From a bacterium (lineage in GTDB: Bacteria; Patescibacteriota; Microgenomatia; Levybacterales; UBA12049), in contig JBEPUU010000002.1 of assembly GCA_041691355.1 (NCBI GenBank), forward strand, positions 1-34,024: a DNA stretch of 34,024 nt. Direction: 5' to 3'. Both the position numbers and the translations under genes were made by a program. Shown here piece after piece: positions 621-20,539 of the stretch. Each line of letters starts with the position of its first letter. Positions within the stretch are counted from its first letter, which is position 1. Below the pieces are notes generated by a model that saw nothing but the letters and a program-made list of their open reading frames with translations, was not told where the DNA came from and searched no databases.

Positions 621-1823
621 ATGGATAATCTATATCGCACCAGAATGCGCTCGCGAAGACAAAAGCCTCCTCGCAAACGAGTATTTTTTGCTCTACTAGT
701 CGCACTTATTCTCATTTGTGGAGTGCTCCTGTGGAAAAGTAGTGCTCTCCTCTCTCTTATGTGGAATACTGGCGTGGATCAACTCACTCATTTAAATGCA
801 CCCCCTGAAAAACCAATTAATCTCTTGCTTCTTGGTATTGGTGGAGGAACACATGATGGTCCTGATTTGACTGATACGATTATTTTTATGCATGTGGACC
901 CCGTTCATAAAAAAGTAAGCCTGGTTTCTCTTCCGCGAGACCTTTGGATTCCTGATTTGGGTGCTAAAGTTAATGCTTCATATACATTTGCATCGGAAAA
1001 AACTCATGGAAGTGGACTGAGTTACACTGAGGCTGCGATCGGCAAAATTCTCGGTCAGCATATCGACTATGGGGTAAAGATTGATTTTGGTGGTTTTGTG
1101 AAAGCTGTAAATATTCTCGGTGGACTAGATATCAAAGTTGCAAATACATTTGATGATTATCAGTATCCGATTGAGGGAAGTGAAGACGCAACGTGTGGAT
1201 TATCAGAGGATCAAATTGCAAGTGAGTCTGCGTCTATAGCCTCAGGAAGTGCTTCAGAGACTGATGCTTTCCCATGCCGATACAAACACATACACTTTGA
1301 TAAAGGATCCGCTCATATGGATGGTGATACAGCGCTTGAGTATGTCCGCTCTCGTCATGCGCTTGGTCCAGAGGGTTCAGATTTTGCGCGTTCCAAACGC
1401 CAAGAAAATATCATTAGTGCATTTAAAGCCAAACTTTTCTCGGTCGGCACTCTCCTAAATCCTGTGAAGATGATCGATTTGGTAAATACATTACAAGGAA
1501 GTCTTGAAACAGATATCCAGCAAAGCAAATATAGTGATTTTATTCATATTGCGCAAGATATGAAGGGAGCAAAGATCTCAAGTACGGTTATTGATACAGG
1601 GGACACAGAAAGAGGTAGATATGGCTTACTCATTAATCCGCCTATCAGTACTGATTATGGCGGCCAATGGGTACTTGTACCAAGCGTAGGTCCTACGGAT
1701 TATTCTGAAATAAAAGAATATGTTATGTGTGAGATTCAAGGTGGAAATTGTATCGTTGGTCAATACGGTATCATAACGCCAACTTCAATGCCCACTCCCA
1801 AATCGACAGGACCAGAGAAATAA
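621..1823 (+). CDS. LytR-CpsA-Psr (LCP) family cell-wall glycopolymer ligase, membrane anchored
   Basis: Basic N-terminus plus TM (FFALLVALILICGVLLW). LCP core motifs: LLLLGIGGG, DTIIFMHVDP, VSLVSLPRDLW, IDYGVKIDFGGF. Confidence 0.85.
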   Translation: MDNLYRTRMRSRRQKPPRKRVFFALLVALILICGVLLWKSSALLSLMWNTGVDQLTHLNAPPEKPINLLLLGIGGGTHDGPDLTDTIIFMHVDPVHKKVSLVSLPRDLWIPDLGAKVNASYTFASEKTHGSGLSYTEAAIGKILGQHIDYGVKIDFGGFVKAVNILGGLDIKVANTFDDYQYPIEGSEDATCGLSEDQIASESASIASGSASETDAFPCRYKHIHFDKGSAHMDGDTALEYVRSRHALGPEGSDFARSKRQENIISAFKAKLFSVGTLLNPVKMIDLVNTLQGSLETDIQQSKYSDFIHIAQDMKGAKISSTVIDTGDTERGRYGLLINPPISTDYGGQWVLVPSVGPTDYSEIKEYVMCEIQGGNCIVGQYGIITPTSMPTPKSTGPEK

Positions 1824-2952: not shown

Positions 2953-5226
2953 TCAGCTATTTATTTTATAAATCCTCGTATTGCCGTGTTGAAAGACTTT
3001 ATGGCCGAGTTGTTTGAATTTCTGTTCATCTAAATTCGGATATTTTTGATATTCGAGAGTCCCAACGTATACATACTGGACGTGATATTCATTGAATAAT
3101 TGCTTTGCTGTCTGCAGATTGATTGTATTGTAGATTGTTTGAACATCGGCAATTCGTGGAGCTGGGACGTCATATGAACCTCTCCACAACCATTCATGAA
3201 CTGTCCAGCCAAGTACCGTTGGAAGGCCTGTGTTGGTTGAAATTCTTGCATAATCGGTATACGAGTCACCTTGCGCTTCAAGAATTATAGGTTGACCTTT
3301 GATGTTTTGGTTTATCCAATTTATTGCGACATAATCGTCGGGATATAATGTTTTTAGATAACTAATACCATTGAGTCCCTGATAATTTTTAAAATTACCA
3401 TAGTATGAAGTAATTGCAAGATACGGATACGTCATAACAAGGCCAACAAGAACAGCAGATGCAAGGAAGAAAAAGAACAGAAGCTTTCGTTGCGCGAGTC
3501 GAAGATCAGGTATGAGGGTTGCCATTCTGACAATGACGTATCCACTGCAAATAGAAAGCATGATAAATGCTTGGAAAACGAGTTTGAACATTGTGTTGGC
3601 TCGGTAATATGTTGGATAAATATCTTTCAAATAGAAAAATTCAGGAATAATAATAAGAAATGTTGAAAGGATAATCATGAGGGCAACAAAAACATCAGTC
3701 ACTGTATGTCTTTTGGAGCGGGTGAGAAATATCCCAAAAGAGATCGCAAAAAAATAAAAGAAACCATATAGCATCAATAGTTCCCACCAATATGACCTTT
3801 GACAATGATCAGGCTCAAAAAGGAACGGTCCGATTTTGCCAATTTTTGTTAAGAAATCTGGTGGACACACAACTCCGATTCCATGACTATAAGCAGCGCT
3901 ATTAAAAAAGAGATTGTATGGAGTTGCAAAGAGAAGTAATCCTGCTGTTATGACAAGCATCGAGATAGAAAAATCACGTCCCCATGCAAGATGCCAGGCT
4001 TTTATTTTAAACAAACGACTTTTTGATTTTTTGTTATTTGCAATAACCAAGGGGGCTTCTTCTTCTCCATTAGCATTTTTATAGAGTGGTATTTTTCGTC
4101 CATGAATATACATCATGGTTAATGCAGTAAGGAGCCAGTAAATTGCACCGTCCCAAGCATTGGTCATATACATTGCAGCAAGAAGCAAACCGACAAATAT
4201 AAGATGAAACGGATGCACAATAAATGTTTTACTTTTATCACTATTTGTTTCTTTGTCCAGATCGGCTTGTAAAAGTAGTAAGGAGAAAAGAAATGCAATT
4301 ATAAGAAGAACAAACGGAATATCAAGTACATGACCATGAAGATCTGCAACTGTCCAAGAATAAACCGGAAACTCGTGGATTGTATGGTAAATAAAACGTG
4401 TCGCATTTGGATACCAGTAGGCATTTGGAAAAGAAAGTGGCTTGAATGGTAGTTGCCAAAATGGCACTGGAGTTTCTGCATTATATGATGTGAAGAATGA
4501 GTAAAAAATATGGAGATTGCCTGCAAAGGTAACAAGGCATGTAGTGAGAAGTCCTGAAGCGATTATTTTTATTTTCGTTATTTTCACATTTTGGGCGATA
4601 TTAAAATATATATTTGCACCAATTGAAAATGCCAATGTAAAGCAACTAGCGACAATTGTTGAGAGCATGAGATTAAACGTGATATATGAAGGAAGTCCTG
4701 AGAGTTTGGTGAGCATTGCTGTGACCAAATGGCCAAAATAATAATAATTGATTGAGTATGGGGTGAACCACATGTCTTTGGGTGGGAAATATTGTGTGCG
4801 GAGAAGCGAGTTAACATACCCAAAATCCATGTATTTCTCAAGTCCATGGATGTCAGGAGCAAACGAATGAACATATGCCCATACCATAAGCACGATCAAG
4901 AAAATGAGCTCTTCTATTGCAAATGTAAGCCATTGTTGTGTGAAAATATACCACAATTTCCATTTTTGTGGGTAAAAAGCACCTGATGCGAATGCTACAA
5001 CGATCGCAACAGTGAGGATCGTGGGAAAGGTAAATGGAGCAATACGAACTGTTCCGACAACAAATACACAATACCCGACAATCAGTAATCCAATAATTTT
5101 TGAAAAAGGATATCCCTTATCAAAAAAGAGCCGGAAGAGTCGGAATGTTATAGGTGTCACAATAATGCCCATGAAAAAGAGCACTACCCACCATTGTAAA
5201 ACAGCAGAAATATCAGATGGATTCAT
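2953..5226 (-). CDS. DUF2298 / 'chlor_Arch_YYY' polytopic membrane protein (putative GT-C-like glycosyltransferase)
   Basis: 757 aa with many TM helices. Signature SINYYYFGH is present (YYY codons tattattat at 4738-4746 on the minus strand). C-terminal soluble domain. Confidence 0.85.
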   Translation of the reverse strand: MNPSDISAVLQWWVVLFFMGIIVTPITFRLFRLFFDKGYPFSKIIGLLIVGYCVFVVGTVRIAPFTFPTILTVAIVVAFASGAFYPQKWKLWYIFTQQWLTFAIEELIFLIVLMVWAYVHSFAPDIHGLEKYMDFGYVNSLLRTQYFPPKDMWFTPYSINYYYFGHLVTAMLTKLSGLPSYITFNLMLSTIVASCFTLAFSIGANIYFNIAQNVKITKIKIIASGLLTTCLVTFAGNLHIFYSFFTSYNAETPVPFWQLPFKPLSFPNAYWYPNATRFIYHTIHEFPVYSWTVADLHGHVLDIPFVLLIIAFLFSLLLLQADLDKETNSDKSKTFIVHPFHLIFVGLLLAAMYMTNAWDGAIYWLLTALTMMYIHGRKIPLYKNANGEEEAPLVIANNKKSKSRLFKIKAWHLAWGRDFSISMLVITAGLLLFATPYNLFFNSAAYSHGIGVVCPPDFLTKIGKIGPFLFEPDHCQRSYWWELLMLYGFFYFFAISFGIFLTRSKRHTVTDVFVALMIILSTFLIIIPEFFYLKDIYPTYYRANTMFKLVFQAFIMLSICSGYVIVRMATLIPDLRLAQRKLLFFFFLASAVLVGLVMTYPYLAITSYYGNFKNYQGLNGISYLKTLYPDDYVAINWINQNIKGQPIILEAQGDSYTDYARISTNTGLPTVLGWTVHEWLWRGSYDVPAPRIADVQTIYNTINLQTAKQLFNEYHVQYVYVGTLEYQKYPNLDEQKFKQLGHKVFQHGNTRIYKINS

Positions 5227-5298: not shown

Positions 5299-5844
5299 TT
5301 ACCCTTGAAAAATCTCTCCTAATTTAGTAATTGCTTTGATATTGGTTCCGATAGTTGTTTCTTTTGTATGTGGATCGAACCAAAAAAATTTTGTTTGAGG
5401 ATTGTCTTTTGCAACATGTCTGACAAGTGAAAGGTCATCATCCACAAAGATATCCAAGTTGAGTTGTTGGAGGATTTCGTTTTTGAATTCATGTGGTTGT
5501 TTGTTGTCATAATTAAAGTAGAGTTTATCAAAAATTTGGTCTAATGCATATCGTTTGACAAGTTTTCTCGTCTCGGGTTCCAGAAAATTAAAACGACTTG
5601 AGATCAAATACAACTGATGATTTTTGTCTTTGGATAATTCTCTGAGAAAAGCGAGATTGTTTTTCATGGGTTGGCGGAGAAACGGCGCATGGCCTGCTTT
5701 GCGTAGAAATTGTTCGGGTCTTGATGGAATGCGATAGAGCAAAATGCCGTTATCACGTTTTTTGTATATTTTATTAATGACAGCAGCTGGAATTAAGGGC
5801 GGTGTGTTAATAAAAACTTTATCAAGATCAAATCCTATCTTCAT
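5299..5844 (-). CDS. HAD-superfamily hydrolase (nucleotidase/phosphatase-like)
   Basis: Motif I FDLDKV (DxDxV), motif II LISSR, motif IV FVDDD. 181 aa. Confidence 0.7.
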   Translation of the reverse strand: MKIGFDLDKVFINTPPLIPAAVINKIYKKRDNGILLYRIPSRPEQFLRKAGHAPFLRQPMKNNLAFLRELSKDKNHQLYLISSRFNFLEPETRKLVKRYALDQIFDKLYFNYDNKQPHEFKNEILQQLNLDIFVDDDLSLVRHVAKDNPQTKFFWFDPHTKETTIGTNIKAITKLGEIFQG

Positions 5845-5882: not shown

Positions 5883-7016
5883 ATGAAACTACTGATAAGC
5901 CTTACATATTATTCACCCCACATCAGCGGATTGACCCTGTCAATGAGATATCTTGCCGAATTATTGGCTGCAAATGGATATGAGGTTGTAGTAGTGGCAG
6001 CTCAGCATGAGAAGCGGTTGCCTTTGCATGAAAAAATGAACGGCGTTGCTGTTACTCGTGTGCCGTATCTTTTCCGTCTCAGTAAAGGATTTATGATGCC
6101 GGCATTTGTCGCTAGTGCTTATGAAGCAGTAAGACATGTGGATGTTGTTATGATCACCTTACCTCAAGCTGAAGGTTTTCTTGTTGTGCTTTTGGCAAAA
6201 CTTTTACATAAGAAAGTTGTTTGTTTGTATATTTGTGAAGTGACAATATCTTCAAATAGGATAACACAAACGCACGTCATTGTTTCTCTTTTGCGGTTTG
6301 TAAATCGTATGACTATCTTTTTTGCTGACAAAATCGTTACATTAACTGATGATTTTGCAAAGCACAATGAGATACTGAAAAAAAGAAAAGTGCATGGCGT
6401 TTATCCTGTTATGATTTCTCCACAGATTGATAATGATCAGAGAGATATTTTACTGCATAAATTTTCAGACAAAAAATATTATATTGGTTATCTTGGAAGA
6501 ATTTCTCAGGAAAAAGGAATCTCTTACTTATTGGAGGCAATTCCTCTCTTACAGAAAGAGTTTAATGATGAGTTTGTCATTGTTCTTGCCGGTCCGAAGA
6601 AAACGGTTGGCGAGGAGGAGTATCAAAAGAAAATCTCAAGTTTGTTAGAGAGATATCCTGAGCTTGTTGTTCACTTGGGCGAGCTGTCTGATAGACAACT
6701 AGGTGCTTTCTATTCGCTGCTAGACGTCTTTGTTCTTCCGAGCACCAATAACACGGAAGCGTTTGGCATGGTGCAGGTTGAAGCGATGTATTGTGGAACA
6801 CCTGTGGTCACAACTGATCTTCCTGGAGTTCGTGTTCCTGTTCAAAAAACCGGAATGGGAGAACTTGTTCCGGCGCAAAATGTTGAATCTTTGGCAGAAG
6901 GGATTTGTAAGGTTTTAAAAAATAGAAAGCACTATGTGAAGTCAAAAGAAACTATTGCAGAGATTTTTTCAGCCGAGAAGATTCTAAAAAAATATCAGGA
7001 GTTGCTTACTCCTTAG
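5883..7016 (+). CDS. GT4-family (GT-B fold) glycosyltransferase
   Basis: C-terminal EX7E motif EAFGMVQVE followed by AMYCGTPVVTTDLPG. Rossmann-like N-domain. 377 aa. Confidence 0.9.
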   Translation: MKLLISLTYYSPHISGLTLSMRYLAELLAANGYEVVVVAAQHEKRLPLHEKMNGVAVTRVPYLFRLSKGFMMPAFVASAYEAVRHVDVVMITLPQAEGFLVVLLAKLLHKKVVCLYICEVTISSNRITQTHVIVSLLRFVNRMTIFFADKIVTLTDDFAKHNEILKKRKVHGVYPVMISPQIDNDQRDILLHKFSDKKYYIGYLGRISQEKGISYLLEAIPLLQKEFNDEFVIVLAGPKKTVGEEEYQKKISSLLERYPELVVHLGELSDRQLGAFYSLLDVFVLPSTNNTEAFGMVQVEAMYCGTPVVTTDLPGVRVPVQKTGMGELVPAQNVESLAEGICKVLKNRKHYVKSKETIAEIFSAEKILKKYQELLTP

Positions 7017-7018
7017 GC

Positions 7019-8527
7019 TTATTTTACCTCAAGTACACGTGCAACAGTAAATGATTTTTTTTGTAGTAGATATGAGTGAATAGAGCTTCCGCATGAATTA
7101 ATCCTTGAACTGTCGATTGTATCTGTGGGATTTAGGATAAACACTTTTGCTCCGTACGTAGTATGTATAGTTTTGCAAAGAGAAATTGCGGAAGTGGATG
7201 TTTGGAAAAAGTTGATAGTATGTGGAATTATTACACTGTCAATAATTGCTCTCTGTTCAGGTTGACCCCACTCTCCCCAACCGGATCCAATGACGAAAAA
7301 AGTTGCTGACTGCGGATATGCATCAATAGTTTGTGCAATAATTCTAGCAAAGGGCGTGTTATGGTCAGGTAGATAGTATGGGTAGACAATAAAATATTTA
7401 TAAATGTTTGCTATTGCAATAACAATCAAAATATAGACGATACATATATACATATATGCTCTTCTAATATGTTTATCTTTGATCGTTTTTGTTAGTACAT
7501 GTTGCCATGTGGTTGTAAGACCATAGGCAGTGGTTATATAAACAAAAGGAATAATGCCTATCATGCGTCCTATATTGGGTTGTGCCAGTGGGTTATGAAT
7601 ATCGAGGAGAGAGGGGATTTGAATAAAGATAACTGGCAAGATAATACATTCTATATATCTCCATTTTTTTTCTTTTATTGATGTATAGATAAGTAAGAAA
7701 AATCCGATAAAAAAGAATAAAGCAGAAGCAGTATCAAGATGTGGTGACGCGGGAACATTGAGGCGAAATCCGTTATCTCCATGTGTGGTAAATGAAAAGA
7801 AATTTGAGGATATATTACTCTCAATATTTTTGATTATTTGGGAAAAAGGTAAGTTGTCTGTAACTGCAAGTTTTTCACCAAAGTATGAGTGATTGGTGAA
7901 AAATCCCACGCTTCCGTTTAGGAATACTATGACCAGAGGGATTGTTATAAGAAGTCCGAGAGAGAGAATGTTAAAGCGTTTCCAAAAGACCAATGGCATT
8001 GCCCAAAAACTTGCCTGTGAATACATTCCAAGTCCTAATAATGTTCCACTGAGGATAGGTTTTTTCTTTATCGCAAAAAGCATTGTTGATGCAACAAAGA
8101 GTGGCACAAGCATTCTTGCATGAGGTTGTCTTGCAAACGTGATACTCCAAAAAGAGACAGCACTTAAAAAAGTTGCACTGTAGGTGATTTCCTTCTTTTT
8201 AAAAAGCTCATCTGTGAGAAAGTACATAACAAAAATAAAAAGAAGATAGACAAGAACAGAAGTGAATTTGAGAGTATAAAAAGAGATTCCTACAAACCAA
8301 CTAACAAGAACAACAATGTATGTATATATCGGCCCATCTCCTCCGAAACGGTAGTTGAAGAAAAGATTGCCATGGAGGACTTGTTGTGCAAGTGCGTAAT
8401 GTGCTACAGCATCTCCCCACATTTCGGCCGGGAGATAATTGAGTTGAAAAAGTCCCAAAAATGCGCCTATACAAAGAATTCCTATGAGTATCCAATATCT
8501 ATACAGTAGATTCAGAATTGGTTTCAT
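7019..8527 (-). CDS. GT-C fold membrane glycosyltransferase (ArnT/PMT_2-like)
   Basis: 502 aa polytopic protein. First-loop acidic segment PAEMWGDAVAHYALAQ and the helix pattern are typical of PMT_2 proteins. Its ATG overlaps the upstream stop by 4 nt (8524-8527). Confidence 0.72.
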   Translation of the reverse strand: MKPILNLLYRYWILIGILCIGAFLGLFQLNYLPAEMWGDAVAHYALAQQVLHGNLFFNYRFGGDGPIYTYIVVLVSWFVGISFYTLKFTSVLVYLLFIFVMYFLTDELFKKKEITYSATFLSAVSFWSITFARQPHARMLVPLFVASTMLFAIKKKPILSGTLLGLGMYSQASFWAMPLVFWKRFNILSLGLLITIPLVIVFLNGSVGFFTNHSYFGEKLAVTDNLPFSQIIKNIESNISSNFFSFTTHGDNGFRLNVPASPHLDTASALFFFIGFFLLIYTSIKEKKWRYIECIILPVIFIQIPSLLDIHNPLAQPNIGRMIGIIPFVYITTAYGLTTTWQHVLTKTIKDKHIRRAYMYICIVYILIVIAIANIYKYFIVYPYYLPDHNTPFARIIAQTIDAYPQSATFFVIGSGWGEWGQPEQRAIIDSVIIPHTINFFQTSTSAISLCKTIHTTYGAKVFILNPTDTIDSSRINSCGSSIHSYLLQKKSFTVARVLEVK

Positions 8528-10185
8528 CGTATATGTTTGAAGATCATAACTTTGGGATGATCATATACAGTAAATGCTTCTTCGGCATTATCATCAGGAA
8601 TGGTGAGGGGTATTCCAAGGTATGCAAGTGATGGGTATGAGGTAAATTCTGCAACTTTTTTGTAATTTGTCTTTCCGGCAAAAAGATTTTGATAAAATTT
8701 CGTCATTTGTGGATACCGCTCGGGGACTGTTGGGATACTTCCCCATCCGCGATTTGAAGATAGAATAAGATAGTCACCTTGGCCAAGTAATGAATCCATT
8801 TTGTTCCATTTTTCCGGTGCATCAGGATCAAATACTGGAAGTTCTTGAATTGTATAGCTGTTTGGTGGTATTCCATCCATTGGTAACGGCAGTGCATCAT
8901 CCCAGCTCTCAGTCAGAAGAACACTTTTTACCGGAATGTGTGTGTAGATCCAATTCGATGCAGAGACTCGGGTGACAGGATGCGTATAAATTGAGAAAAA
9001 GAGAAGTGGCCAAATAATAACAATCAGAAGAAGCACGGCTTGGATATATTTGTTGGTTTGTTTAGAAAAATAGGTAAATCCGATTCCTGCAAGAAGCGCA
9101 AGAAATGGATAAAGGGTGAGAAAGTATCGCATTGTTTGTACTGATTGTAATGATTGATAGAGGAAAAAAAGAACGACCCACATAAAAATAACGCAAAGAT
9201 CTGTATGTCGAATTTTTCTAATAAGATAATATCCTCCCAATACACTACAAAATGTAAACCCGATTCCTACACCATACAGAACTAGATTTTTCAATCCGAA
9301 AAGAATAGGTGTTTTGTGAATCCACTGGACACCTGGTGGATACCAGCCCTTAGGATCGCTGAGCGCTTGGAGTTGTTTTAAGTTCGCAAGGTAGAGTTGA
9401 CTGATTTGTGGGTCGAGCAAATTCCCATTTTGGAAAAGATATGGATCAGCTATTCTTCCAACAATATACGCTGTAATACCAAAAAACACTAAGTCTCTGA
9501 CTATTTTGAGAAGATCTTTTTTAGGAATTTTTCGTTTTACATCATAGGTATTAACAAAAAAATAGAGAAGAAGTGGCGAGATGAAAACAGCAGTAACTTT
9601 TGAGGCGAGAGCAAGTCCGAAAAAAAGTCCGCTGAGAAGTAGCCAGCGACGATTTTTCGTAAAAGAGAAACGAAGACAGGTGTAAAATGAGATAAAGACA
9701 AATGCATTGAGAAATGTATCAACCGCAAAAAAATGGGAGAGTTGAATTGGCAGAACAGCGATTGCATAAAAGAGTGCTGCCCAATATTTTATGTGCTGAT
9801 GAATTGCATATTTCTTTTCAAATAGTTCAGCTGTTTTGAAAACCATAACAACGACTATCAAATCAAGAAATCCCGAGAGAATTCTTCCAAGCAGTGTAAT
9901 GTCATTGTAGCTATCGCCATTTGTAGCAATGGCAACAACCTTATTCAGGATTACAGGAAGAGCACCATAAACATAAAATGAATAGCCGATATTGGCAGGA
10001 TTCATGGTGGAGATATGAGGATTGAGGTAGTCAAGAAATGTATGAGGTACCTGCATTGAGCTCCCTACCATTGTCAGAAATCGTTCATCGGGATGAAGAT
10101 GTTTATTTTGATCCCAATTAACGTCACAAAATCTGAAGATTGCACCAATCATTATGATTCCAATGAGCAACAATTTTCTCTTCAT
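8524..10185 (-). CDS. GT-C fold membrane glycosyltransferase (PMT/GT39-like), HPDER-motif paralogue A
   Basis: 553 aa. First-loop HPDERF (the DE motif of PMT-type GT-C enzymes). About 10 or more TM helices. C-terminal soluble domain ends FTVYDHPKVMIFKH. Confidence 0.8.
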   Translation of the reverse strand: MKRKLLLIGIIMIGAIFRFCDVNWDQNKHLHPDERFLTMVGSSMQVPHTFLDYLNPHISTMNPANIGYSFYVYGALPVILNKVVAIATNGDSYNDITLLGRILSGFLDLIVVVMVFKTAELFEKKYAIHQHIKYWAALFYAIAVLPIQLSHFFAVDTFLNAFVFISFYTCLRFSFTKNRRWLLLSGLFFGLALASKVTAVFISPLLLYFFVNTYDVKRKIPKKDLLKIVRDLVFFGITAYIVGRIADPYLFQNGNLLDPQISQLYLANLKQLQALSDPKGWYPPGVQWIHKTPILFGLKNLVLYGVGIGFTFCSVLGGYYLIRKIRHTDLCVIFMWVVLFFLYQSLQSVQTMRYFLTLYPFLALLAGIGFTYFSKQTNKYIQAVLLLIVIIWPLLFFSIYTHPVTRVSASNWIYTHIPVKSVLLTESWDDALPLPMDGIPPNSYTIQELPVFDPDAPEKWNKMDSLLGQGDYLILSSNRGWGSIPTVPERYPQMTKFYQNLFAGKTNYKKVAEFTSYPSLAYLGIPLTIPDDNAEEAFTVYDHPKVMIFKHIR

Positions 10186-10225
10186 TCTATTATTGTAGCA
10201 TGATAATTCATGAGGTTTAAAATCA

Positions 10226-10843
10226 TTATTCTTTTATCTCTGCAACGACTCGGATAGGTGAGCCATCAAGAGAAAGTTTGAGTGGAAATGCATAGATGGT
10301 GAATTGTTTATCTTTTAATGAGGCTAAATTTGTGAGATTTTCGAGAATTAATATATCGTTTTGTAAAAGAAGTTTGTGTATAACAACTGTCTGCTGATCA
10401 ACGCTGCAGGTATCAACTCCGACCATCTTGATCTGTTTTTCAACAAGATAGTGTGCAATGATTTCTGGAATAGCCGGATAGTTTTCAAAATACTCAGGTT
10501 TAGAATATAACTCGTCCATGCCGGTATGAAATAAAACGATATCAGCTTTTTGGATATCTGTCTGTTTAATACTCTCTAAATCAAACTGATTATTCTCAAC
10601 TTTTATATATACTCCCCTACCTGTAAATGTTTCAACAGAGAATTGATCAAGTCCTTTTCCTCCTTCGAGCATATGTCTAGGGGAGTCGATATGTGTTCCA
10701 GCGTGTGTGCCAATGCAAAGATAATGATCTTCATACCCATCTGTTGATAGATTTCCTGCAGGTTTTATTTCTGTTGAGGGATCTCCTGGATATACAGGCA
10801 TGGTTTCGTTGATCGAGACTGATAAATCTATAAGTTTCATCAT
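10226..10843 (-). CDS. cyclase-family metal-dependent hydrolase (arylformamidase/kynurenine-formamidase fold)
   Basis: Diagnostic HxGTHxDxPxH motif present as HAGTHIDSPRH. 205 aa. Its start codon directly abuts the stop of the upstream GT-C gene. Confidence 0.85.
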   Translation of the reverse strand: MMKLIDLSVSINETMPVYPGDPSTEIKPAGNLSTDGYEDHYLCIGTHAGTHIDSPRHMLEGGKGLDQFSVETFTGRGVYIKVENNQFDLESIKQTDIQKADIVLFHTGMDELYSKPEYFENYPAIPEIIAHYLVEKQIKMVGVDTCSVDQQTVVIHKLLLQNDILILENLTNLASLKDKQFTIYAFPLKLSLDGSPIRVVAEIKE

Positions 10844-12493
10844 TTAACTATTTTTCTTAAAAATAAATACCGTTGGTCTATCAAAAACTGATGATGTTTG
10901 TTCCCACCAGTATACTGGGTCGTTCAGGTATGTTATTTTGCAAAAGATATCGCATGGTGTTTCATATATTTTGTGAAAGCCCAGAGTTCCATTGAGTAGT
11001 GATGTGTAGAATACATAGCCTTTGGGAAAACGTAGAGGATTTTGAATACGTAACTGCAAAATGCGCTGACTCGGAAGAATAATATATTGTGCTTGTGAGA
11101 TTTGTTGTTGCAATAGTGTCTCTGTGGCGTCCATTGAGTTATTATCCAAATCATAGAACTGGAATGTCGTAATATGAGGAAAAGCATCTTGAAATGTAAC
11201 AAGTCCCATATCTGCGGGCTCTGAAAGAATTTGGGAATCAAGGGGGATTGCATGCCGAGTAAATGTAACAGCTGCAATTCTCGAATCTGTATTGATAAAT
11301 GAAGTTTTGAAATACGAGAATGCGAAGACGATGCAGATGATACATATGATACTTGTCACCAATTTTTTGGTTTGTTTACCAAAAGAAAAAGAGGTTATCC
11401 CTAGTGCTATTGTGAGATAGATAAATGGAAGTGTAGGCATCATATACCTTGTCCACTTAACAAAAAGAAATGCTTGCGAACATAAGAGAATTAAGAAGAA
11501 AGAAGCAAGGAGTAAGGTTTGACTATTTTTTTGCCTGAAAGTTATAACGAGAAGACAAATAAATGCAGGGATAAAAAGAATTGTTACAAGTGGATTAATG
11601 AGGAGCGGATAGACGTGCAAGAACTGATAGATCACTGGAATTGTGTTAGGGAAAGCACCAGTATAAAAGACAGGCAATGTCCCAAGTGCGACACCCGATT
11701 CGTAGTGCATACTTGATAAGAAATCTTTTTGATCAAGAAAGACGAACGGATTAGTAATGATATATACGAGTAGTGAAACGATGATAAATAACAAAGAATT
11801 CTTCAAAAAATGTAAAAAGCCTGAAAGTTTGATGCTGTGAGTTTTTTTAAATGAATGCATAAGAAAGAGAGCGAGAGGAATCGGAAGAAGTGCAAGGGAT
11901 GTGACTTTGATCGCAACAAGCATCCCAAAGATAAGTGCTGCAAGGATAAAATATAGTCTCTTTGGTTTATCTAAATAATTGAGGCATACCCAAAACAACA
12001 GAGCACCAAAAAATGTAAGCCACATTTCAAATGTCCCAAAATGGGAAAATTGCGTAAATCCCACGCTCATTGTCCCCAAAAATGCAGCCAGAAGACCCGT
12101 ATGTTCATCTTTAAGTTTTCTCCCTAGGACAAAAAGGATCGGGATAAGAAATGTTGCAAAGAAAGCAGAATACGCTCTTCCGATAAGAATTGCCTGGTCA
12201 AACGTTGCAGTGAACGGCTGTGTTTGTGTTCCCAGCTGCATCAGTTGTGAAATATAGTTTGATATAAGACTTGTAAGGTAGATTACATAAATCGGAAGAG
12301 AACCATATGCGAAAAATCGAGGATTCATTTGATTTGGAAAATGCAATTGGGTCACTGCACTGGCAATATTGCGCTCATCAGGATGAAAATAATATGGTGC
12401 GCCCCAGCTGAGATTGTAGAAATGCAAAAGTATTCCAATTAGAGTAAGAAAGGATATAAGAAAAAAGTTTTTATATTTTTTAAACAGTCTCAT
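10844..12493 (-). CDS. GT-C fold membrane glycosyltransferase (PMT/GT39-like), HPDER-motif paralogue B
   Basis: 549 aa. First-loop FHPDERN then MNPRFFAYGSLP (compare MNPANIGYSFYVYGALP in paralogue A). C-terminal domain ends SVFDRPTVFIFKK. Confidence 0.8.
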   Translation of the reverse strand: MRLFKKYKNFFLISFLTLIGILLHFYNLSWGAPYYFHPDERNIASAVTQLHFPNQMNPRFFAYGSLPIYVIYLTSLISNYISQLMQLGTQTQPFTATFDQAILIGRAYSAFFATFLIPILFVLGRKLKDEHTGLLAAFLGTMSVGFTQFSHFGTFEMWLTFFGALLFWVCLNYLDKPKRLYFILAALIFGMLVAIKVTSLALLPIPLALFLMHSFKKTHSIKLSGFLHFLKNSLLFIIVSLLVYIITNPFVFLDQKDFLSSMHYESGVALGTLPVFYTGAFPNTIPVIYQFLHVYPLLINPLVTILFIPAFICLLVITFRQKNSQTLLLASFFLILLCSQAFLFVKWTRYMMPTLPFIYLTIALGITSFSFGKQTKKLVTSIICIICIVFAFSYFKTSFINTDSRIAAVTFTRHAIPLDSQILSEPADMGLVTFQDAFPHITTFQFYDLDNNSMDATETLLQQQISQAQYIILPSQRILQLRIQNPLRFPKGYVFYTSLLNGTLGFHKIYETPCDIFCKITYLNDPVYWWEQTSSVFDRPTVFIFKKNS

Positions 12494-12501
12494 ACAGTAT
12501 T

Positions 12502-13779
12502 TTACTTACCTATCAAGCGGGACACTTTCTCTCCCAATTCTACTGCGTAATTCGTACCACGATCCCATGGGTAGACTTGTTCGATATTTGCCAAAAAGAC
12601 ATGTGGAAGTGGGGTTGTCATCGAGGGAATTACTTTAGAATAATTTGTCGGTACGATTGGCTGGGCAAATGGTGCCTTAAATAGTTCTGTTCCAATAAGA
12701 TATTTTTTATAATCAGGATTAATGCGTTTGAGAAGCGGATCATAATACTTGAGAGTTTGTTCTTTGTCTTTTTGAAAAAGTTCTGAGTCGGGTGCTGGAT
12801 AATTGCCAACATATACCAAATGCTCATTATTATAGTGAGATTTGTCCATAAAATTTGTATGCTCAACAACTACCATAACTGGGGCATTTTGTTCACAAAT
12901 GCTCAGCCAATACGTCCCGTCATGTAAGAATGGTTCTTTTAATCTGAGAAGCAAATTTGTAGCACCCAGTCCTTTGAGTCGGATAAGTCTATTTCTATAC
13001 TCATCAGGTAATTGAGGAACAAGTTTGAGAAATAGAAATGATGGGAGAGTTACAATCGTTTTATCAAACAGGGCACTTTTTTCTTTGCCTTCAACTTTCC
13101 AGGCAACTGTAGTTTGATTTTCATCTTTTATATTGCCAACTTCTACATTGAATAACACTTTCCCACCTTTTTTCTCTATTGCTTTGACCAGTGCTTGGGC
13201 GAAAGGTAAAAATCCTTTTTCAGGATAGGCAAGTGATGGGGTGCGTTTTTTTATTCGGCTCCAAAACCACACGAGGGAAACATCATCAGCATACTCCCCC
13301 ATCTTGTTTCGCAGTTGTACCTCCCAAAGCATACTGTAAGCTCTTTTTCCCATTGTTTTGGTAAGAAATTGATTTGCATTTATTTTTTCAAGAGGTTTCC
13401 AAAATGGATTGAATCGCAAAAATGCAAGAACCGCTGCCATACGTAATTTTTCATGCATGGGGAGTTCTGGAAATCTAAGAAGTGCCAAGGGGGAGTCAAG
13501 TTGATATCTCTTATCGTTAAGGAAAGCTGAAGTTTTTGGGCGTTTGATAATAACAGGATAATTAATTTCTTTTGCGAGATTGAGAATATGATCATCATTG
13601 GTGAACCAGTGATGGTAATGTTTTTCAATTGTCCATTCCCAACTTTTTTCTTTAAATCCAATTGCCAGTCCACCTGGTTGAGGGTCTTTCTCAAAAACTG
13701 TGACATCATGTCCGTTTTTTACCAGTTGGTATGCTGCGGAGAGGCCGGTAAATCCTGCGCCGATTATTGCAATTTTCAT
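12502..13779 (-). CDS. FAD-dependent oxidoreductase (amine-oxidase / protoporphyrinogen-oxidase / UGM-like flavoprotein superfamily)
   Basis: N-terminal dinucleotide fold KIAIIGAGFTGLSAAYQL...VTVFEKDPQPGG. 425 aa. Substrate cannot be assigned from sequence alone. Confidence 0.8.
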   Translation of the reverse strand: MKIAIIGAGFTGLSAAYQLVKNGHDVTVFEKDPQPGGLAIGFKEKSWEWTIEKHYHHWFTNDDHILNLAKEINYPVIIKRPKTSAFLNDKRYQLDSPLALLRFPELPMHEKLRMAAVLAFLRFNPFWKPLEKINANQFLTKTMGKRAYSMLWEVQLRNKMGEYADDVSLVWFWSRIKKRTPSLAYPEKGFLPFAQALVKAIEKKGGKVLFNVEVGNIKDENQTTVAWKVEGKEKSALFDKTIVTLPSFLFLKLVPQLPDEYRNRLIRLKGLGATNLLLRLKEPFLHDGTYWLSICEQNAPVMVVVEHTNFMDKSHYNNEHLVYVGNYPAPDSELFQKDKEQTLKYYDPLLKRINPDYKKYLIGTELFKAPFAQPIVPTNYSKVIPSMTTPLPHVFLANIEQVYPWDRGTNYAVELGEKVSRLIGK

Positions 13780-13793
13780 AGAGTGATTTTGTA

Positions 13794-15185
13794 TTATATG
13801 GCAGAGAGAAAGAATAATAAAGCGCCAATACCTATTGTGGATATCGCAGCAATTATTCCTGTCACCAGTGCGGAGCTTCCTGTCTTTGGAAGCGGAGCAC
13901 GACTTGGAACAGGCGTCAGATTTTGTGAAACAGTGGGAGTAGGTGCCTGAGTTGGGGTAACAGTTGGTGTTGGAATTGTTGTTGGAGTAGGTGCAAGAGT
14001 TGGAGATGCGGATGCAATAGGTGTTGTAGGTGTCTGAATTGGTGAGACAGATGGTTCAATAAATTTACTTCCGGCTGCATATACGGTAAAGGATCTGCTC
14101 AGAGTTTGGAGAACCCCTGTGGCATCAACTGATTTGATAGTAATTGTATGATTGCCAGATGCAAGTGCTTGAGGCGGACGAAACTCCCATGAACCGCTGT
14201 CATCACTGTGTACTGTGGTCGAAATTTCTTGTTGCGATTGGATAGTAATATCAACTTCTGTATTTGGTAGAGCTCTTCCTTGGAACAATGGTTGTCGGTC
14301 GCTGAATGCTTCGGTATCAGTTGGTGAGGTAATTTCAGGAGATGAAACAGGAGCAGGTGTTGAGAGAACTGGGAATGCGGCAGAGTTTGATGCTGTTTGG
14401 CCTGATCCAGATGCTGACTGGTCAGGACTAAGTGTGAAGTCGTAATTTTGAGAGAGAACTATCTTAGGAACTTGATTTGCCTGACTTTCAAGAAGTTTAA
14501 TCGTTGAAGTTTGGGTCGATGTAACTGCTTGTAACTGTAAAACAGTATCTGGTGTCAAGGTCGCAGCATCACTCCCAGTGGTAGTTCTCATAGTAGCAAG
14601 TGGTAATTGGTATGATCCATCCGGATTGATAAGCGTAGAAAGTTGTTGTGAGCTATCTGTTGAGACGTATATAATTCCTTCTTTGGGAATACTTCCATCA
14701 CTTTGTGCAACTGTTCCTGAAAGAATAGTCTGATTACTCTGTGGATTTATCAAAGGAGCGGCTTTTGTAATTTCACAATGAGATCCGATATTGTCTGCTT
14801 TTTGACTTCCCGAATCGATAACATAATAATATCGTGTTGCCGGGGCAAGGTTGCTGACAGTTATGAAATGTACTTGGTAGTTTGCTGCTTTGCCTGCTTG
14901 TTGATCACGATTATCAAGAGCGATGTTGGGAGTTGTCGTATCGAATCCGTATGAAATTGTTCCAACGGCGCTTGCATCAGTTGTATACGAGATGGTAAAC
15001 GACGAATCTGAAATATTACTAATTTGGATATTTTTGGGTTCACTTCCGACAGTTGCTCGTGATATGAAAATAAATGCGTTTCCACTGAGGAGTACTGTGA
15101 CACAGAGAGTCATAAGCAAGACAAAAAAACCTGCATATGACGGCAGTTTTTTGTTTAATACTCTGTTTCGTCGTTCATAGCTCAT
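13794..15185 (-). CDS. LPXTG-type cell-surface protein (FN3-like + carboxypeptidase-regulatory-like + Ig-like domains, Pro/Thr stalk)
   Basis: N-terminal signal/anchor, then an FN3-like segment (PKNIQISNISDSSFTISY...ATRYYYVI) and an Ig-like segment (FQGRALPNTEVDITIQ...GNHTITIKSVD). PT-rich stalk at ~13900-14050. LPKTG (13878-13892) is followed by a hydrophobic C-terminus. Confidence 0.75.
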   Translation of the reverse strand: MSYERRNRVLNKKLPSYAGFFVLLMTLCVTVLLSGNAFIFISRATVGSEPKNIQISNISDSSFTISYTTDASAVGTISYGFDTTTPNIALDNRDQQAGKAANYQVHFITVSNLAPATRYYYVIDSGSQKADNIGSHCEITKAAPLINPQSNQTILSGTVAQSDGSIPKEGIIYVSTDSSQQLSTLINPDGSYQLPLATMRTTTGSDAATLTPDTVLQLQAVTSTQTSTIKLLESQANQVPKIVLSQNYDFTLSPDQSASGSGQTASNSAAFPVLSTPAPVSSPEITSPTDTEAFSDRQPLFQGRALPNTEVDITIQSQQEISTTVHSDDSGSWEFRPPQALASGNHTITIKSVDATGVLQTLSRSFTVYAAGSKFIEPSVSPIQTPTTPIASASPTLAPTPTTIPTPTVTPTQAPTPTVSQNLTPVPSRAPLPKTGSSALVTGIIAAISTIGIGALLFFLSAI

Positions 15186-15190
15186 TATCC

Positions 15191-15514
15191 TTATTGACCT
15201 GTTCCTGCTGATTGCGAAGCAACAGGTGACACTTGGGGAGAAGGTGATATATCTGATGACGGTGGTGTCGTTGCCGATTGAGAACCTGTTTGTTCAAAGA
15301 GCGGATTAATATCTTCCCTAGTCTTGAGTTCTTGAATAGTCTCTTGGTCAAATGTTGGATTAATAGGATTGAGTTGAGATTGGACATGTTCATTGACAGT
15401 TGAAGTAACTTTAATATGATAAATGTTAAATCCTATCCATGCCACAACCACGACAAATGATGAAATTAAAATGAAAAGAATATCTTTTTGTTTGCGTTGT
15501 TGTCCAGGTTTCAT
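15191..15514 (-). CDS. small single-pass membrane protein with Ser/Pro-rich tail (unknown function, pilus-cluster associated)
   Basis: 107 aa. Basic N-terminus, TM (ILFILISSFVVVVAWIGFNIY), C-terminal SQSATTPPSSDISPSPQVSPVASQS. One nt from the pilO stop. Confidence 0.6.
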   Translation of the reverse strand: MKPGQQRKQKDILFILISSFVVVVAWIGFNIYHIKVTSTVNEHVQSQLNPINPTFDQETIQELKTREDINPLFEQTGSQSATTPPSSDISPSPQVSPVASQSAGTGQ

Positions 15515-15515
15515 A

Positions 15516-16133
15516 TTATTGTTTGAAATATTGTCTCCCTCGTAATGTCAGTACTAAATTACTATTTTTAGGATTTGTGCCCATTTCTACCGATTCAACC
15601 GTGATAAGGCGCGATAGTGATATAAGTTCAGATGAAAATGCAAGCATGTCATTATACTTTCCTTCCGCTTGTAGTAAGAATACGAATGATTGGACTGAAG
15701 GATTTTTCGGATTAGTTGCCATTTGTACCTCAGTGACTCGATAACTTGTAACACTAAGAGTGTGTTTTTGGGCCAAAGCAGCGACCTGAGCGCTCAGGAG
15801 TGGTGCCTCAGGATTTTGTGGAACGGCATTATAAATATTGGTTAAATTAGAACCCAGCACATTATATTGTTGTTCGAGGGAGCTTAGATTATCTATCTTT
15901 GTCTGCAATTGATGGTCTACTGTCGTGTCATCAGATAATTGTTTTTGAAGGCTAAAAATTGTTGAAAGGGTTGGATTGATTGCAAAAATACCAAAAAACG
16001 AAAGTGCGGCGAAGGTAAGCGCAAGTGTCACAAAATTGTACGCTGTTTCCTGTTGCATATTCGGAAGCAATTTGAGGTAAGCCCTATATTTATTGGCCGA
16101 GAGATTTTCAAAATAGCTTTTTGGTAATTTCAT
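15516..16133 (-). CDS. pilO: type IV pilus assembly protein PilO-like
   Basis: Start is chosen at MKLPKSYF (ATG 16133), 1 nt after the pilN stop. TM, coiled-coil (LQKQLSDDTTVDHQLQTKIDNLSSLEQQ) and C-terminal alpha/beta domain match PilO architecture. Confidence 0.65.
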   Translation of the reverse strand: MKLPKSYFENLSANKYRAYLKLLPNMQQETAYNFVTLALTFAALSFFGIFAINPTLSTIFSLQKQLSDDTTVDHQLQTKIDNLSSLEQQYNVLGSNLTNIYNAVPQNPEAPLLSAQVAALAQKHTLSVTSYRVTEVQMATNPKNPSVQSFVFLLQAEGKYNDMLAFSSELISLSRLITVESVEMGTNPKNSNLVLTLRGRQYFKQ

Positions 16134-16134
16134 A

Positions 16135-16734
16135 TTATTGATTGCTGTTAGTTTGGTACAACGAATTGGTTGTTTGTTGTTCTGTTTGTGCAAAAGGCGC
16201 TTGTTTTAGTGTTGCTGTGATAATCAAAGTTACTTGCGCATTTGTAGCACTATTTTGCACTTTATCAATAGAAACAGTCGTCACTAAAGGATAGCTTTTA
16301 AGAATATTCACAAATTGTGTAAGAGAGTCGACAGATGGTGCTTGTATCTCAATGGAAGCATTCTGCGTGTTTACTGTAATATCTTTGAAGGTAATTTTTC
16401 CTTTGCCCATTGTTATTATGTCATTAAAAATAGTTGCGGTTCTGTTACCGATTGGCGTATATTGTTTTACTGTTGAGAGACGTTTTTGGAGATCAATGAA
16501 GGATGTTTCAGCGCTTTTAAAATTATCAAGGATAAAGCTTTCACTTTTTATTTTGTCATGTAAATTGACGATTTGCATATCAAGACTAAAACGATAGATA
16601 AACGTTGCAAGCGCAACCATCTCAGTCAGAATAATGAGGAGCCGGCCGATTGAAAGTGCCCAATTAAAAAATTGTGACATGAAGCTTTCCGAATTACGTG
16701 GGAGGAGATTAATTGTTGTGTCTTTCTCAGCCAT
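16135..16734 (-). CDS. pilN: type IV pilus assembly protein PilN-like
   Basis: Conserved N-terminal INLLP motif (TTINLLPRN), single TM, periplasmic-type domain. Start is ATG 16734 (MAEKD); an alternative GTG at 16749 sits inside a leader hairpin. Confidence 0.7.
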   Translation of the reverse strand: MAEKDTTINLLPRNSESFMSQFFNWALSIGRLLIILTEMVALATFIYRFSLDMQIVNLHDKIKSESFILDNFKSAETSFIDLQKRLSTVKQYTPIGNRTATIFNDIITMGKGKITFKDITVNTQNASIEIQAPSVDSLTQFVNILKSYPLVTTVSIDKVQNSATNAQVTLIITATLKQAPFAQTEQQTTNSLYQTNSNQ

Positions 16735-16767
16735 AGCAACCAGCCGCACACATTGCGGCTTAATTCT

Positions 16768-16796
16768 AGTGTATGGCTTTTATTTATAAATGTCAA
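16768..16796 (-). promoter_or_regulatory. candidate sigma70-type promoter of the pilN-led array
   Basis: Minus strand: TTGACA (16791-16796), 17 nt, TACACT (16768-16773). A 7-bp hairpin agccgca/tgcggct (16742-16760) follows in the leader. Confidence 0.45.
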
Positions 16797-19359: not shown

Positions 19360-19372
19360 TATACTATTATTT

Positions 19373-20471: not shown

Positions 20472-20505
20472 AGGGTCCTCTAAGTATAAAGGATACGAGT
20501 TTGGT

Positions 20506-20533
20506 TTGGAAGATAGATTGGATGATATATAAT
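20506..20533 (+). promoter_or_regulatory. candidate promoter for GH18-like gene
   Basis: TTGGAA (20506-20511), 16 nt, TATAAT (20528-20533). The -10 ends 6 nt before ATG 20540, so either the mRNA is leaderless or the intervening aGGTGG is the SD of a longer transcript. The two readings are mutually exclusive and unresolved. Confidence 0.35.
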
Positions 20534-20539
20534 AGGTGG

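Follow-up and report, generated by a model that had tools for sequence, protein, structure and literature searches.

A PilN-PilO-stalk gene block and an adjoining set of flavoprotein and GT-C glycosyltransferase genes in a Levybacterales genome

In a stretch of 34,024 nucleotides from a bacterium of the Levybacterales (Patescibacteriota, Microgenomatia, UBA12049; assembly GCA_041691355.1, contig JBEPUU010000002.1, positions 1 to 34,024 of the forward strand), called the window hereafter, nine open reading frames (ORFs), all on the minus strand, lie between 16749 and 7019. Genes for two relatives of type IV pilus (T4P) alignment proteins, PilN and PilO, are followed by those for a small membrane protein (p107), an LPXTG-type surface protein (the stalk protein), a flavoprotein, a cyclase-fold hydrolase and two membrane glycosyltransferases of the GT-C fold (GTC1 and GTC2) with a probable third (GTC3). 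The array and the signals at its two ends, in the order of reading, are as follows.

16768..16796, minus strand: sigma-70-like promoter match TTGACA-17-TACACT, score 10/12, in the divergent region between pilN and the gene for elongation factor G (EF-G)
16135..16734, minus strand: PilN-like bitopic protein, 199 aa from the ATG at 16734 (ORF 16135-16749 in the ORF table), with an N-terminal TINLLP motif of the PilM-binding type
15516..16133, minus strand: PilO-like protein, 205 aa from an internal ATG at 16133 (ORF 15516-16193 in the ORF table); PF04350 at 1.4e-9, 38.6 bits against a cutoff of 22
15191..15514, minus strand: p107, a small bitopic protein of 107 aa with a transmembrane (TM) helix, a conserved segment of about 40 aa and a variable S/T/P/A/Q-rich tail
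13794..15185, minus strand: stalk protein, 463 aa; Pfam Big_13 at 3.7e-11 and the FnIII-like Pur_ac_phosph_N at 7e-7
12502..13779, minus strand: FAD/NAD(P)-binding flavoprotein of the amine-oxidase/phytoene-desaturase superfamily; PF01593 at 3.8e-27
10844..12493, minus strand: GTC1, membrane glycosyltransferase of the GT-C fold, PMT_2/GT39-like; PF13231 at 28.2 bits against a cutoff of 26.1
10226..10843, minus strand: cyclase-fold (kynurenine-formamidase-like) hydrolase; PF04199 at 7.9e-29
8524..10185, minus strand: GTC2, GT-C fold, PMT_2/GT39-like, with a C-terminal extracytoplasmic alpha/beta domain; PF13231 at 38.6 bits against a cutoff of 26.1
7019..8527, minus strand: GTC3, polytopic membrane protein, probable divergent GT-C; hhalign to the GTC2 profile at E 3.5e-5
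6997..7013, minus strand: terminator-like hairpin of 6 pairs followed by a T-run (tail GATATTTTTT), directly 3' of the GTC3 stop codon

Counted from the PilN ATG at 16734 and the internal PilO ATG at 16133, the junctions measure 1, 1, 5, 14, 8, 0, 40 and -4 nt in array order, and seven of the eight are at most 14 nt or overlapping. A first-pass annotation, made from the letters of this DNA, had described nine co-directional genes with these junctions, and the ORF table bears it out. The Ser/Thr/Pro (S/T/P) tracts, the LPKTG motif and the promoter match that it listed are all present, and the gene identities are as it had guessed, by way of orthologs for PilN and of transitive homology for GTC3. 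It had also singled out the 'gap-free' layout, a point that we do not retain: among 589 same-strand neighbour pairs in the related loci described below, the median gap is 9 nt, 56% of gaps are at most 20 nt and 21% of pairs overlap by 1 to 8 nt. Tight spacing is thus the norm in these loci, and we reject the idea that it makes the array special.

Two further claims, that the array has a single good promoter upstream and no terminator inside, hold in part. The promoter match upstream of pilN is there, but promoter-like sites occur at chance level (45 found against 46.4 +/- 6.3 expected in the region scan) and the array itself contains more of them, among them one at 10221-10192, within the 40-nt gap between the cyclase gene and GTC2, whose -10 is TG-extended, and one at 13841-13814, shortly 5' of the flavoprotein gene. 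The single promoter thus carries little weight as evidence. Nor do terminator-like sites exceed chance (7 found against 9.3 expected); three of them, all weak and within coding sequence, lie on the minus strand inside the array, and the best-placed hairpin is the one at its end (7013-6997), whose position would fit the end of an operon, such sites being at chance level overall.

Upstream of the array lies the divergent EF-G gene. Its ORF as listed starts at 16790 and so overlaps the promoter-like site of pilN; judging by the conserved EF-G N-terminus, translation more likely starts from the Met at about 16874, and the intergenic region between the divergent genes would then measure about 139 nt. 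GC skew is positive in nearly all 1-kb bins of 1-34024 and the cumulative skew climbs steadily, a pattern that would place the whole window on one replichore, with the minus-strand array transcribed against replication. Rfam and tRNA scans of the window returned no matches.

PilN, PilO, p107 and the stalk protein

The window copy of PilN has no Pfam match of its own. Among its orthologs, 18 of 26 match PF05137 (best 1e-9), the N-terminal motif is kept as INL(L/V/A), and the ortholog profile finds PilN of Myxococcus xanthus (3jc8) in the PDB as a weak match (E 0.013). The corresponding profile for PilO retrieves PilO of M. xanthus at 3e-13 and of Pseudomonas aeruginosa at 1e-7. No family in Pfam or NCBIfam matches p107, whose conserved segment has the pattern NIYH..TSTI..PI.P.FD..TI..LK.R and whose S/T/P-rich tract is SQSATTPPSSDISPSPQVSPVASQS. 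The small protein is encoded between PilO and the stalk in nearly all related loci covering that stretch, and its junction with the stalk gene is a -4 nt overlap in 24 of 31 loci. In two Levybacteria-like loci that have MurJ, not EF-G, upstream, a small plus-strand ORF of about 100 aa lies directly 5' of pilN (L130 8919-9236 and L102 8848-9153); the window has no counterpart of it.

The stalk protein starts with a TM/signal helix, followed by three beta-sandwich (FnIII/Ig-like) domains, a disordered Pro/Thr (PT)-rich linker, the LPKTG motif and a C-terminal TM helix; the tract PIQTPTTPIASASPTLAPTPTTIPTPTVTPTQAPTPTV lies ahead of LPKTG. Its AlphaFold2 (AF2) model (mean pLDDT 80) has well-predicted domains at residues 50-140, 154-250 and 284-368, predicted disorder at 256-273 and 376-437 (the PT linker), and a helix at 438-462. 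Foldseek with this model returned generic tandem FnIII/Ig proteins and adhesin extenders only, and the fold search gave no likeness to PilQ, PilP or a pilin. An exact-sequence look-up found no record of the protein.

LPKTG is followed by a 26-residue tail, SSALVTGIIAAISTIGIGALLFFLSAI, which gives an LPXTG motif with a hydrophobic segment. The positively charged C-terminal tail is missing from the window stalk, which ends LLFFLSAI without Arg or Lys; an R/K-G tail is seen in roughly half of the stalk orthologs. About 80 orthologs share the PT linker, the TM helix and a motif of the form Px(T/S)G or PG. The motif itself is degenerate: about 40% of orthologs have (L/I)Px(T/S/A)G, and the rest PTG(S/N), PRSG or PG(S/N). 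Across the last 45 residues of the stalks of L001-L156, this motif ahead of the TM helix depends on the lineage (LPxTG, IPxSG, LAPTG, PTGS/N, PRSGN, or only PG(S/N)). Judged from the motifs, such variety suggests several sortase specificities, or another processing enzyme in some lineages. There is no sortase gene in the 34-kb window; sortase is reported to be near-ubiquitous in Microgenomates (PMC6744442).

Occurrence together and apart in related loci

Related loci were collected by pattern-based scans, so the counts below are those of samples, not of censuses. Searching GTDB species representatives with an alignment of flavoproteins gave 80 loci, whose content was read by tblastn and hidden Markov model (HMM) searches, and a metagenome scan with a five-sequence PilO alignment gave 75; the same metagenome scan with the Blackburnbacteria PilO alone gave no matches. 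ORF starts in these loci are the first start codon of each ORF, and exact junction values depend on that choice. The best named homologs come mostly from Candidatus Levybacteria/Levyibacteriota and from unclassified Patescibacteria metagenome-assembled genomes (MAGs), so that the window stems from a Levybacteria-like bacterium of the Microgenomates.

Conservation of the neighbourhood outside the source genome, which the first-pass annotation had proposed as a check, is clear. In about 35 Levybacteria-like loci the same order recurs: an oppositely oriented EF-G or MurJ gene, then PilN, PilO, p107, stalk and flavoprotein, then GT-C genes, sometimes with an oppositely oriented GT4 gene and a HAD-like gene, then DUF2298, and finally LytR-CpsA-Psr (LCP) and TIM genes on the opposite strand. 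Dozens of species-level loci keep this order, with PilN, PilO and stalk identities down to about 30%. Together with the frequent 4-nt overlaps, the conserved order makes co-transcription plausible.

Every PilO-anchored locus long enough to show it has the four genes PilN-PilO-p107-stalk. Twenty-six such loci, a few of them near-duplicates of each other, extend at least 3 kb beyond the stalk gene and allow the reverse test:

Flavoprotein directly after the stalk gene, with GT-C or DUF2298: 7 of 26 loci
GT-C or DUF2298 without flavoprotein: 7 of 26 loci, in 4 of which the first GT-C is on the opposite strand
None of flavoprotein, GT-C and DUF2298: 12 of 26 loci, in which the convergent LCP and TIM genes come directly after the stalk gene

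The stalks encoded in loci without these enzyme genes retain the TM helix, a PT-rich linker and a motif of the type Px(T/S)G, such as PRSGN or PRTGN. The flavoprotein-anchored sample consists of the 42 loci that extend 4 kb or more to either side, with content scored within 6 kb of the flavoprotein:

Pil block and GT-C or DUF2298: 24 of 42 loci
Pil block only: 2 of 42 loci
GT-C or DUF2298 only: 11 of 42 loci
Neither: 5 of 42 loci

PilO-anchored and flavoprotein-anchored loci thus each occur without the other unit, and the pil/stalk block and the glycan genes are separable in both directions. Since the EF-G/MurJ and LCP/TIM flanks are equally syntenic, the adjacency seen in the window results in part from a variable island set in a conserved backbone.

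In the Blackburnbacteria locus L035, the PilO-p107-stalk genes and a flavoprotein/GT-C-like/DUF2298/LCP set lie 8 kb apart. Between 2248 and 9975 of this locus, the stalk gene is followed by genes for a 1099-aa subtilase with FG-GAP repeats and for three cohesin/dockerin-domain proteins, and then by the flavoprotein gene; the intervening genes resemble a cellulosome-like surface-protein set in a genome of the Candidate Phyla Radiation (CPR).

The glycan genes and their neighbours

The flavoprotein is a member of NCBIfam NF005560/PRK07233 (388.4 bits against a cutoff of 252), a family named 'hypothetical protein'. Its Rossmann GxGxxG region is invariant (G7, G9, G12). Over 7,700 homologs were retrieved, the best 120 sharing 64-76% identity with it, and the family is common to CPR, Chloroflexota and one Nanoarchaeota MAG. 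A profile search of the PDB gave no close relative; its matches were chiefly to amine oxidases, desaturases and UDP-galactopyranose mutase in their Rossmann N-terminus, and we drew no functional assignment from it. In other Microgenomates (L045, L046, L047, L052) the flavoprotein gene stands in tandem PMT_2 arrays with GT2 and GT4 genes and without pil genes, a GT2 gene adjoining it in L045. Chloroflexota loci likewise have it among glycan-related genes with no pil genes. In three of them (L050, L064, L078) DUF2298 lies about 5-8 kb from it. In two others (L062 8991-12710 and L076 8994-12799) it overlaps, by ATGA, the gene of a flippase-like LPG_synthase_TM protein and precedes a UDP-glucose 6-dehydrogenase gene; going by gene content, this conserved trio hints at the pathway in which the flavoprotein may act.

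GT-C enzymes use polyprenyl-phosphate-linked donors and act at the extracytoplasmic face. GTC1 and GTC2 are full-length paralogs (24% identity, E 2e-30), and in their HPDER motif of loop 1 the residues P32, D33, E34 and R35 are invariant among 56 aligned sequences, GTC1 included. At the aligned position GTC3 reads AEMWGD, and the Asp-Glu motif is not kept. GTC3 has no Pfam or NCBIfam match, its match to the GTC2 profile covers the N-terminal 170 aa, and an HMM of its orthologs finds paralogs beside the flavoprotein gene (L045, L047, L052) that match PMT_2/PMT at 1e-10 to 1e-16; it is thus a probable GT-C, by transitive homology only. The TIGR03663 (Agl23-like) family was rejected for all three, GTC1 scoring 25.6 and GTC2 16.6 bits against a cutoff of 126 and GTC3 not matching. 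PDB sequence searches with GTC1, GTC2 and GTC3 gave no matches, and Pfam reported no MIR domain for the GT-C proteins.

Comparison of GT-C models with known structures had been suggested by the first-pass annotation as a way to recognise a protein O-glycosyltransferase. For GTC2 the AF2 model (pLDDT 89.7, pTM 0.89) confirms a generic GT-C fold: all 17 Foldseek matches in the PDB with E at most 1e-3 are GT-C enzymes (STT3, AglB, ArnT). STT3/AglB match at 3e-6 to 8e-5, ArnT at 1e-4, Pmt4 at 1e-3, PglB at 4e-3 and AftA at 7e-3, with TM-scores of about 0.43-0.50 throughout; Pmt4, PglB, AftA, ALG3 and Emb (EmbA/B) rank after the 17 top matches, the protein O-mannosyltransferases (PMT) at E 1e-3 to 2e-2. 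The model matches oligosaccharyltransferase (OST), ArnT, PMT and Aft/Emb about equally, and therefore the comparison does not discriminate between acceptor classes (protein, lipid A or glycan) and speaks neither for nor against a protein acceptor. At residues 426-433 of GTC2 (window about 8887-8910), beyond the last TM helix, lies an invariant E-x-W-D-D-x-L-P stretch (ESWDD in GTC2, with E426/D429/D430), which may loosely recall WWDYG, the motif with which STT3/PglB bind the acceptor; the best structural matches are to OST catalytic subunits.

The cyclase gene stands apart from the rest of the array. Its product belongs to the general Cyclase family only, as its 95.7 bits fall under the cutoff of 223 for the arylformamidase KynB equivalog TIGR03035. 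No homolog was found in any of the 156 related loci (L001-L156), including the closest relative (L081, GTC2 at 84% identity), which has the same gene order and 52 nt between GTC1 and GTC2. We therefore consider the gene, spaced 0 nt from GTC1 and 40 nt from GTC2, to be a strain-specific insertion between them; from its distribution and spacing, it looks like a clean, recent single-gene insertion.

Beyond the array, towards the start of the window, lie four further genes and TIM.

5883..7016, plus strand: cytoplasmic glycosyltransferase of family GT4 (GT-B), convergent with the array; PF00534 at 3e-35
5299..5844, minus strand: h181, a small, weakly HAD-like protein; HAD_2 at only 0.0045
2953..5226, minus strand: polytopic membrane protein of the DUF2298/Chlor_Arch_YYY family, 757 aa; PF10060 at 4e-92, TIGR03662 at 500.8 bits against a cutoff of 300
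621..1823, plus strand: LCP family protein (glycopolymer-to-peptidoglycan ligase); PF03816 at 3.9e-30; adjoins TIM and forms the convergent boundary of the island

GT4 is present in L002, L016, L021, L028, L043 and L081 and absent in many other loci. In at least 17 loci an ortholog of h181 is encoded immediately 5' of DUF2298. DUF2298 is the most constant member of the island, downstream of the flavoprotein and GT-C genes in Levybacteria-like loci; hhalign found no relationship between it and the GTC2 profile, and the literature searched holds nothing on the function of DUF2298 or Agl23. The 757-aa protein is a clear member of TIGR03662, linked to GT-C-like proteins, and in this the window resembles the Chlor_Arch_YYY and Agl23-like pairs of Chloroflexi and Archaea; it differs in the partner, GTC1 and GTC2 matching TIGR03663 only weakly and under its cutoff. 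The LCP gene is kept at its position in most Levybacteria-like loci, including those without the island. The window contains neither a GT2 polyprenyl-phosphate-sugar synthase nor a small GtrA/GtcA-type flippase.

Elsewhere in the window, genes for a PIG-L family de-N-acetylase, an ICMT-family methyltransferase and a GH18 protein (19316-21619) lie between EF-G and EF-Tu and break the usual str/S10 ribosomal gene neighbourhood. The genes at 25988-27728 encode long forms of two ribosomal proteins, L3 (304 aa) and L4 (278 aa). Pfam matches L3 over no more than residues 95-185, and its L4 domain does not begin before residue 83, a pattern of coverage that suggests lineage-specific extensions.

Readings of the array and their meaning

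We read the array, with slightly better than even confidence, as a genuine operon, probably transcribed as one, whose two units are separable in evolution. The first would be a conserved core (16734-13794) with PilN, PilO, p107 and the stalk; conservation and translational coupling of this four-gene block suggest that p107 and the stalk act with PilN and PilO, and they may do so at the membrane-wall interface. The order of its genes recalls T4P pilMNOPQ of Pseudomonas and Myxococcus (pilMNO in monoderms and CPR), in which pilN and pilO are likewise followed by genes for a small membrane-anchored and a larger envelope protein. PilMNO is reported to be widespread in CPR, and CPR lack PilQ (PMC6744442). 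p107 and the stalk would thus hold the gene positions of pilP and pilQ, by positional analogy only: neither has detectable homology to PilP or PilQ, the stalk being made of tandem beta-sandwich domains with an LPXTG-like signal, not a secretin, and the array differs from pilMNOPQ in having no adjoining pilM, pilin, ATPase or platform gene.

The second unit (13779-7019, on to DUF2298 at 2953) would be a variable envelope-glycan island, placed between the stalk gene and LCP/TIM in some lineages only and containing the PRK07233 flavoprotein, two or three GT-Cs, DUF2298, the HAD-like protein and GT4. The substrate of the flavoprotein may be the lipid carrier, or a sugar linked to a nucleotide or to polyprenyl phosphate, and the GT-Cs would then transfer such sugars to an acceptor on the outer face of the membrane. 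One possible acceptor is a glycopolymer of the wall or one linked to lipid, the island being flanked by an LCP ligase gene; another is secreted proteins generally, with the PT-rich tracts of the stalk and p107 possibly among them. As far as gene content can tell, the several GT-C paralogs, DUF2298, GT4 and the HAD-like protein, and the partners of the flavoprotein elsewhere, fit a stepwise, extracytoplasmic assembly of glycans from lipid-linked sugars.

Several observations weigh against this reading of two separable units. The junction between the stalk and flavoprotein genes is a -4 nt overlap in 16 of 36 loci (median 1 nt), and the same overlap is found again in metagenome loci L090, L091, L092, L117, L129 and L139; such recurrence could be a sign that the two genes are functionally coupled, and not just compactly arranged. 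Among the ORFs of the window, p107 and the stalk alone reach 60% S/T/P or more within a stretch of 25 aa, and both are encoded directly 5' of the enzymes. Stalk lineages without adjoining GT-Cs may carry GT-Cs elsewhere, outside the loci examined. On the side of the first unit, no pilM, pilin, PilB/PilC or pilus ATPase gene was found in the 34-kb window or in the inspected 10-kb flanks of relatives, so that PilN and PilO are tied to a pilus by homology alone; on the side of the second, the searched literature gives no function for the PRK07233 family. Finally, there is a precedent for clustering of enzyme and substrate genes in Caldicellulosiruptor bescii, where the GT39 enzyme Cbes1864 is encoded beside CelA, the genes of its PT-linker substrates adjoining (PMC6151902).

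The question arises, then, whether the enzymes are dedicated to the stalk. The first-pass annotation had proposed a possible self-contained module that builds and O-glycosylates a surface stalk. In such a module the GT-Cs would O-glycosylate the S/T/P-rich tracts of the stalk and p107 from a polyprenyl-phosphate sugar whose making needs the flavoprotein. The confinement of such tracts to these two proteins in the window would agree with this, as would the full gene order with overlapping junctions in many Levybacteria-like loci, the scores of GTC1 and GTC2 above the PMT_2 threshold with the PMT-type Asp-Glu motif kept, and the precedents of C. bescii GT39 (PMC6151902) and of TfpW. In P. aeruginosa group IV, the GT-C enzyme TfpW arabinosylates type IV pilins with a lipid-linked donor that needs DprE1 with DprE2 (bioRxiv 10.1101/2020.04.19.049825). 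Compared by description, the array is like this system in that a GT-C is encoded with pilus genes and that a flavoenzyme may take part, and differs in that TfpW adjoins pilA and modifies pilin, no pilin gene being near the array. Likeness to GT39/PMT of Actinobacteria and C. bescii extends to the GT-C fold, the PMT_2 matches of GTC1 and GTC2 and the invariant Asp-Glu of loop 1. Yet the array has three paralogs plus DUF2298 and a flavoprotein partner where those systems have one enzyme, and the structural matches of GTC2 to PMT are weaker than those to OST and ArnT; Foldseek gives PMT no preference over OST, ArnT or Aft, and the MIR domain is missing from the Pfam results. A single PMT is enough for protein O-mannosylation, and three to five GT-C paralogs with DUF2298 fit stepwise glycan assembly better. 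Moreover, the flavoprotein does not follow the stalk in 19 of the 26 PilO-anchored loci, 12 of which also lack GT-C and DUF2298 and still have the PT linker, and flavoprotein/GT-C sets are widespread without pil or stalk genes. Given that the units are separable and that the cyclase is absent from relatives, a self-contained module is not supported; dedicated O-glycosylation of the stalk is possible but unsupported, and we think a dedicated module unlikely.

At the other extreme, the island may make or decorate a peptidoglycan-linked or lipid-anchored glycopolymer unrelated to the stalk, with the GT-Cs extending it outside the membrane, LCP ligating it to the wall, and the adjacency being no more than synteny in a compact genome, for which tight spacing as the genomic norm would speak. 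An LCP gene bounds the island in nearly all loci, several GT-C paralogs come with DUF2298, GT4 and the HAD-like protein, and elsewhere the flavoprotein gene is found with flippase-like, UDP-glucose dehydrogenase and GT2 genes. LCP enzymes are ligases that join glycopolymers to peptidoglycan (PMC7831098), GT-Cs are known to modify wall polymers in monoderms, and extracytoplasmic glycan assembly on wall polymers, in mycobacterial arabinan and Gram-positive systems, has been reviewed (PMC8035078, PMC7831098). The mycobacterial DprE1/E2, Emb/Aft and Lcp1 set similarly combines a flavoprotein, several GT-Cs and an LCP protein, and AftA and EmbA/B are among the matches of GTC2; the flavoprotein of the array, however, is of another family, and LCP persists in relatives without the island. 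DprE1 belongs to a flavoenzyme family other than the amine-oxidase family. Similarly, relatives resemble Gram-positive systems of the CsbB-GtcA-YfhO type (GT2, flippase and GT-C) in that GT2 and flippase-like genes accompany their flavoprotein gene, but the window has neither a GT2 polyprenyl-phosphate-sugar synthase nor a small flippase. Because LCP stays beside the stalk gene where the island is absent, it appears to be part of the syntenic backbone and not specific to the island. A glycopolymer unrelated to the stalk would also leave the recurrent -4 overlap of stalk and flavoprotein genes unexplained, and we regard this explanation as improbable.

The array might also be no operon at all, nine genes being merely co-directional and served by several internal promoters. 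The promoter-like sites at 10221-10192 and 13841-13814 and the chance-level quality of the upstream match are what one would expect in that case. Against it stand the seven short or overlapping junctions out of eight, the conservation of overlapping start and stop codons across species, and the position of the sole well-placed terminator-like hairpin at the end of the array. We find this very hard to credit. A bolder extension of the two-unit operon, which we consider distinctly unlikely, would make p107 and the stalk the counterparts of PilP and PilQ in monoderm CPR: a sortase-anchored stalk on its PT-rich spacer would carry the PilN/PilO platform through the wall and, in lineages with the island, the spacer would be O-glycosylated by the GT-Cs, PRK07233 helping to make the donor.

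Two other systems were considered. The Pam pilus operon of CPR encodes PamR, an RbmA-like protein with two FnIII domains and a C-terminal TM helix (bioRxiv 10.64898/2026.03.03.709456). By description, PamR and the stalk are both CPR surface proteins with FnIII domains and a C-terminal TM helix. Identity with the Pam operon was rejected, since that operon has chaperone-like PamC/D, donor-strand pilins and ATP synthase flanks and has no PilN/PilO. T4P-dependent secretion of Bsa in Clostridium perfringens was set aside as an analogue, as the bsa genes lie outside the pil operon.

T4P alignment proteins, GT39-like GT-Cs, DUF2298 and LCP are already known kinds of protein. The elements that we consider new are the conserved PilN-PilO-p107-stalk unit and its lineage-specific joining, into one operon, with a flavoprotein/GT-C island; the literature searched holds no description of the block or of the island.

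CPR/Patescibacteria rely on surface structures for attachment to their hosts, and to our knowledge their envelope is almost uncharacterised. In the reading of two separable units, PilN-PilO-p107-stalk is a candidate for the part, so far missing, with which the pilus machine of monoderm-like CPR cells would span the envelope, and the enzyme genes form a variable glycan island centred on a highly conserved PRK07233 flavoprotein that is common to CPR and Chloroflexota. If the island glycosylates the stalk, the locus would be a new case of substrate and enzyme genes kept together for bacterial O-glycosylation; if not, it would behave like an O-antigen-type hypervariable glycan site in CPR. Should p107 and the stalk indeed be counterparts of PilP and PilQ, the array would encode a glycosylated, wall-spanning T4P part of a kind previously undescribed, and would provide the first function for a flavoprotein family of thousands of members.

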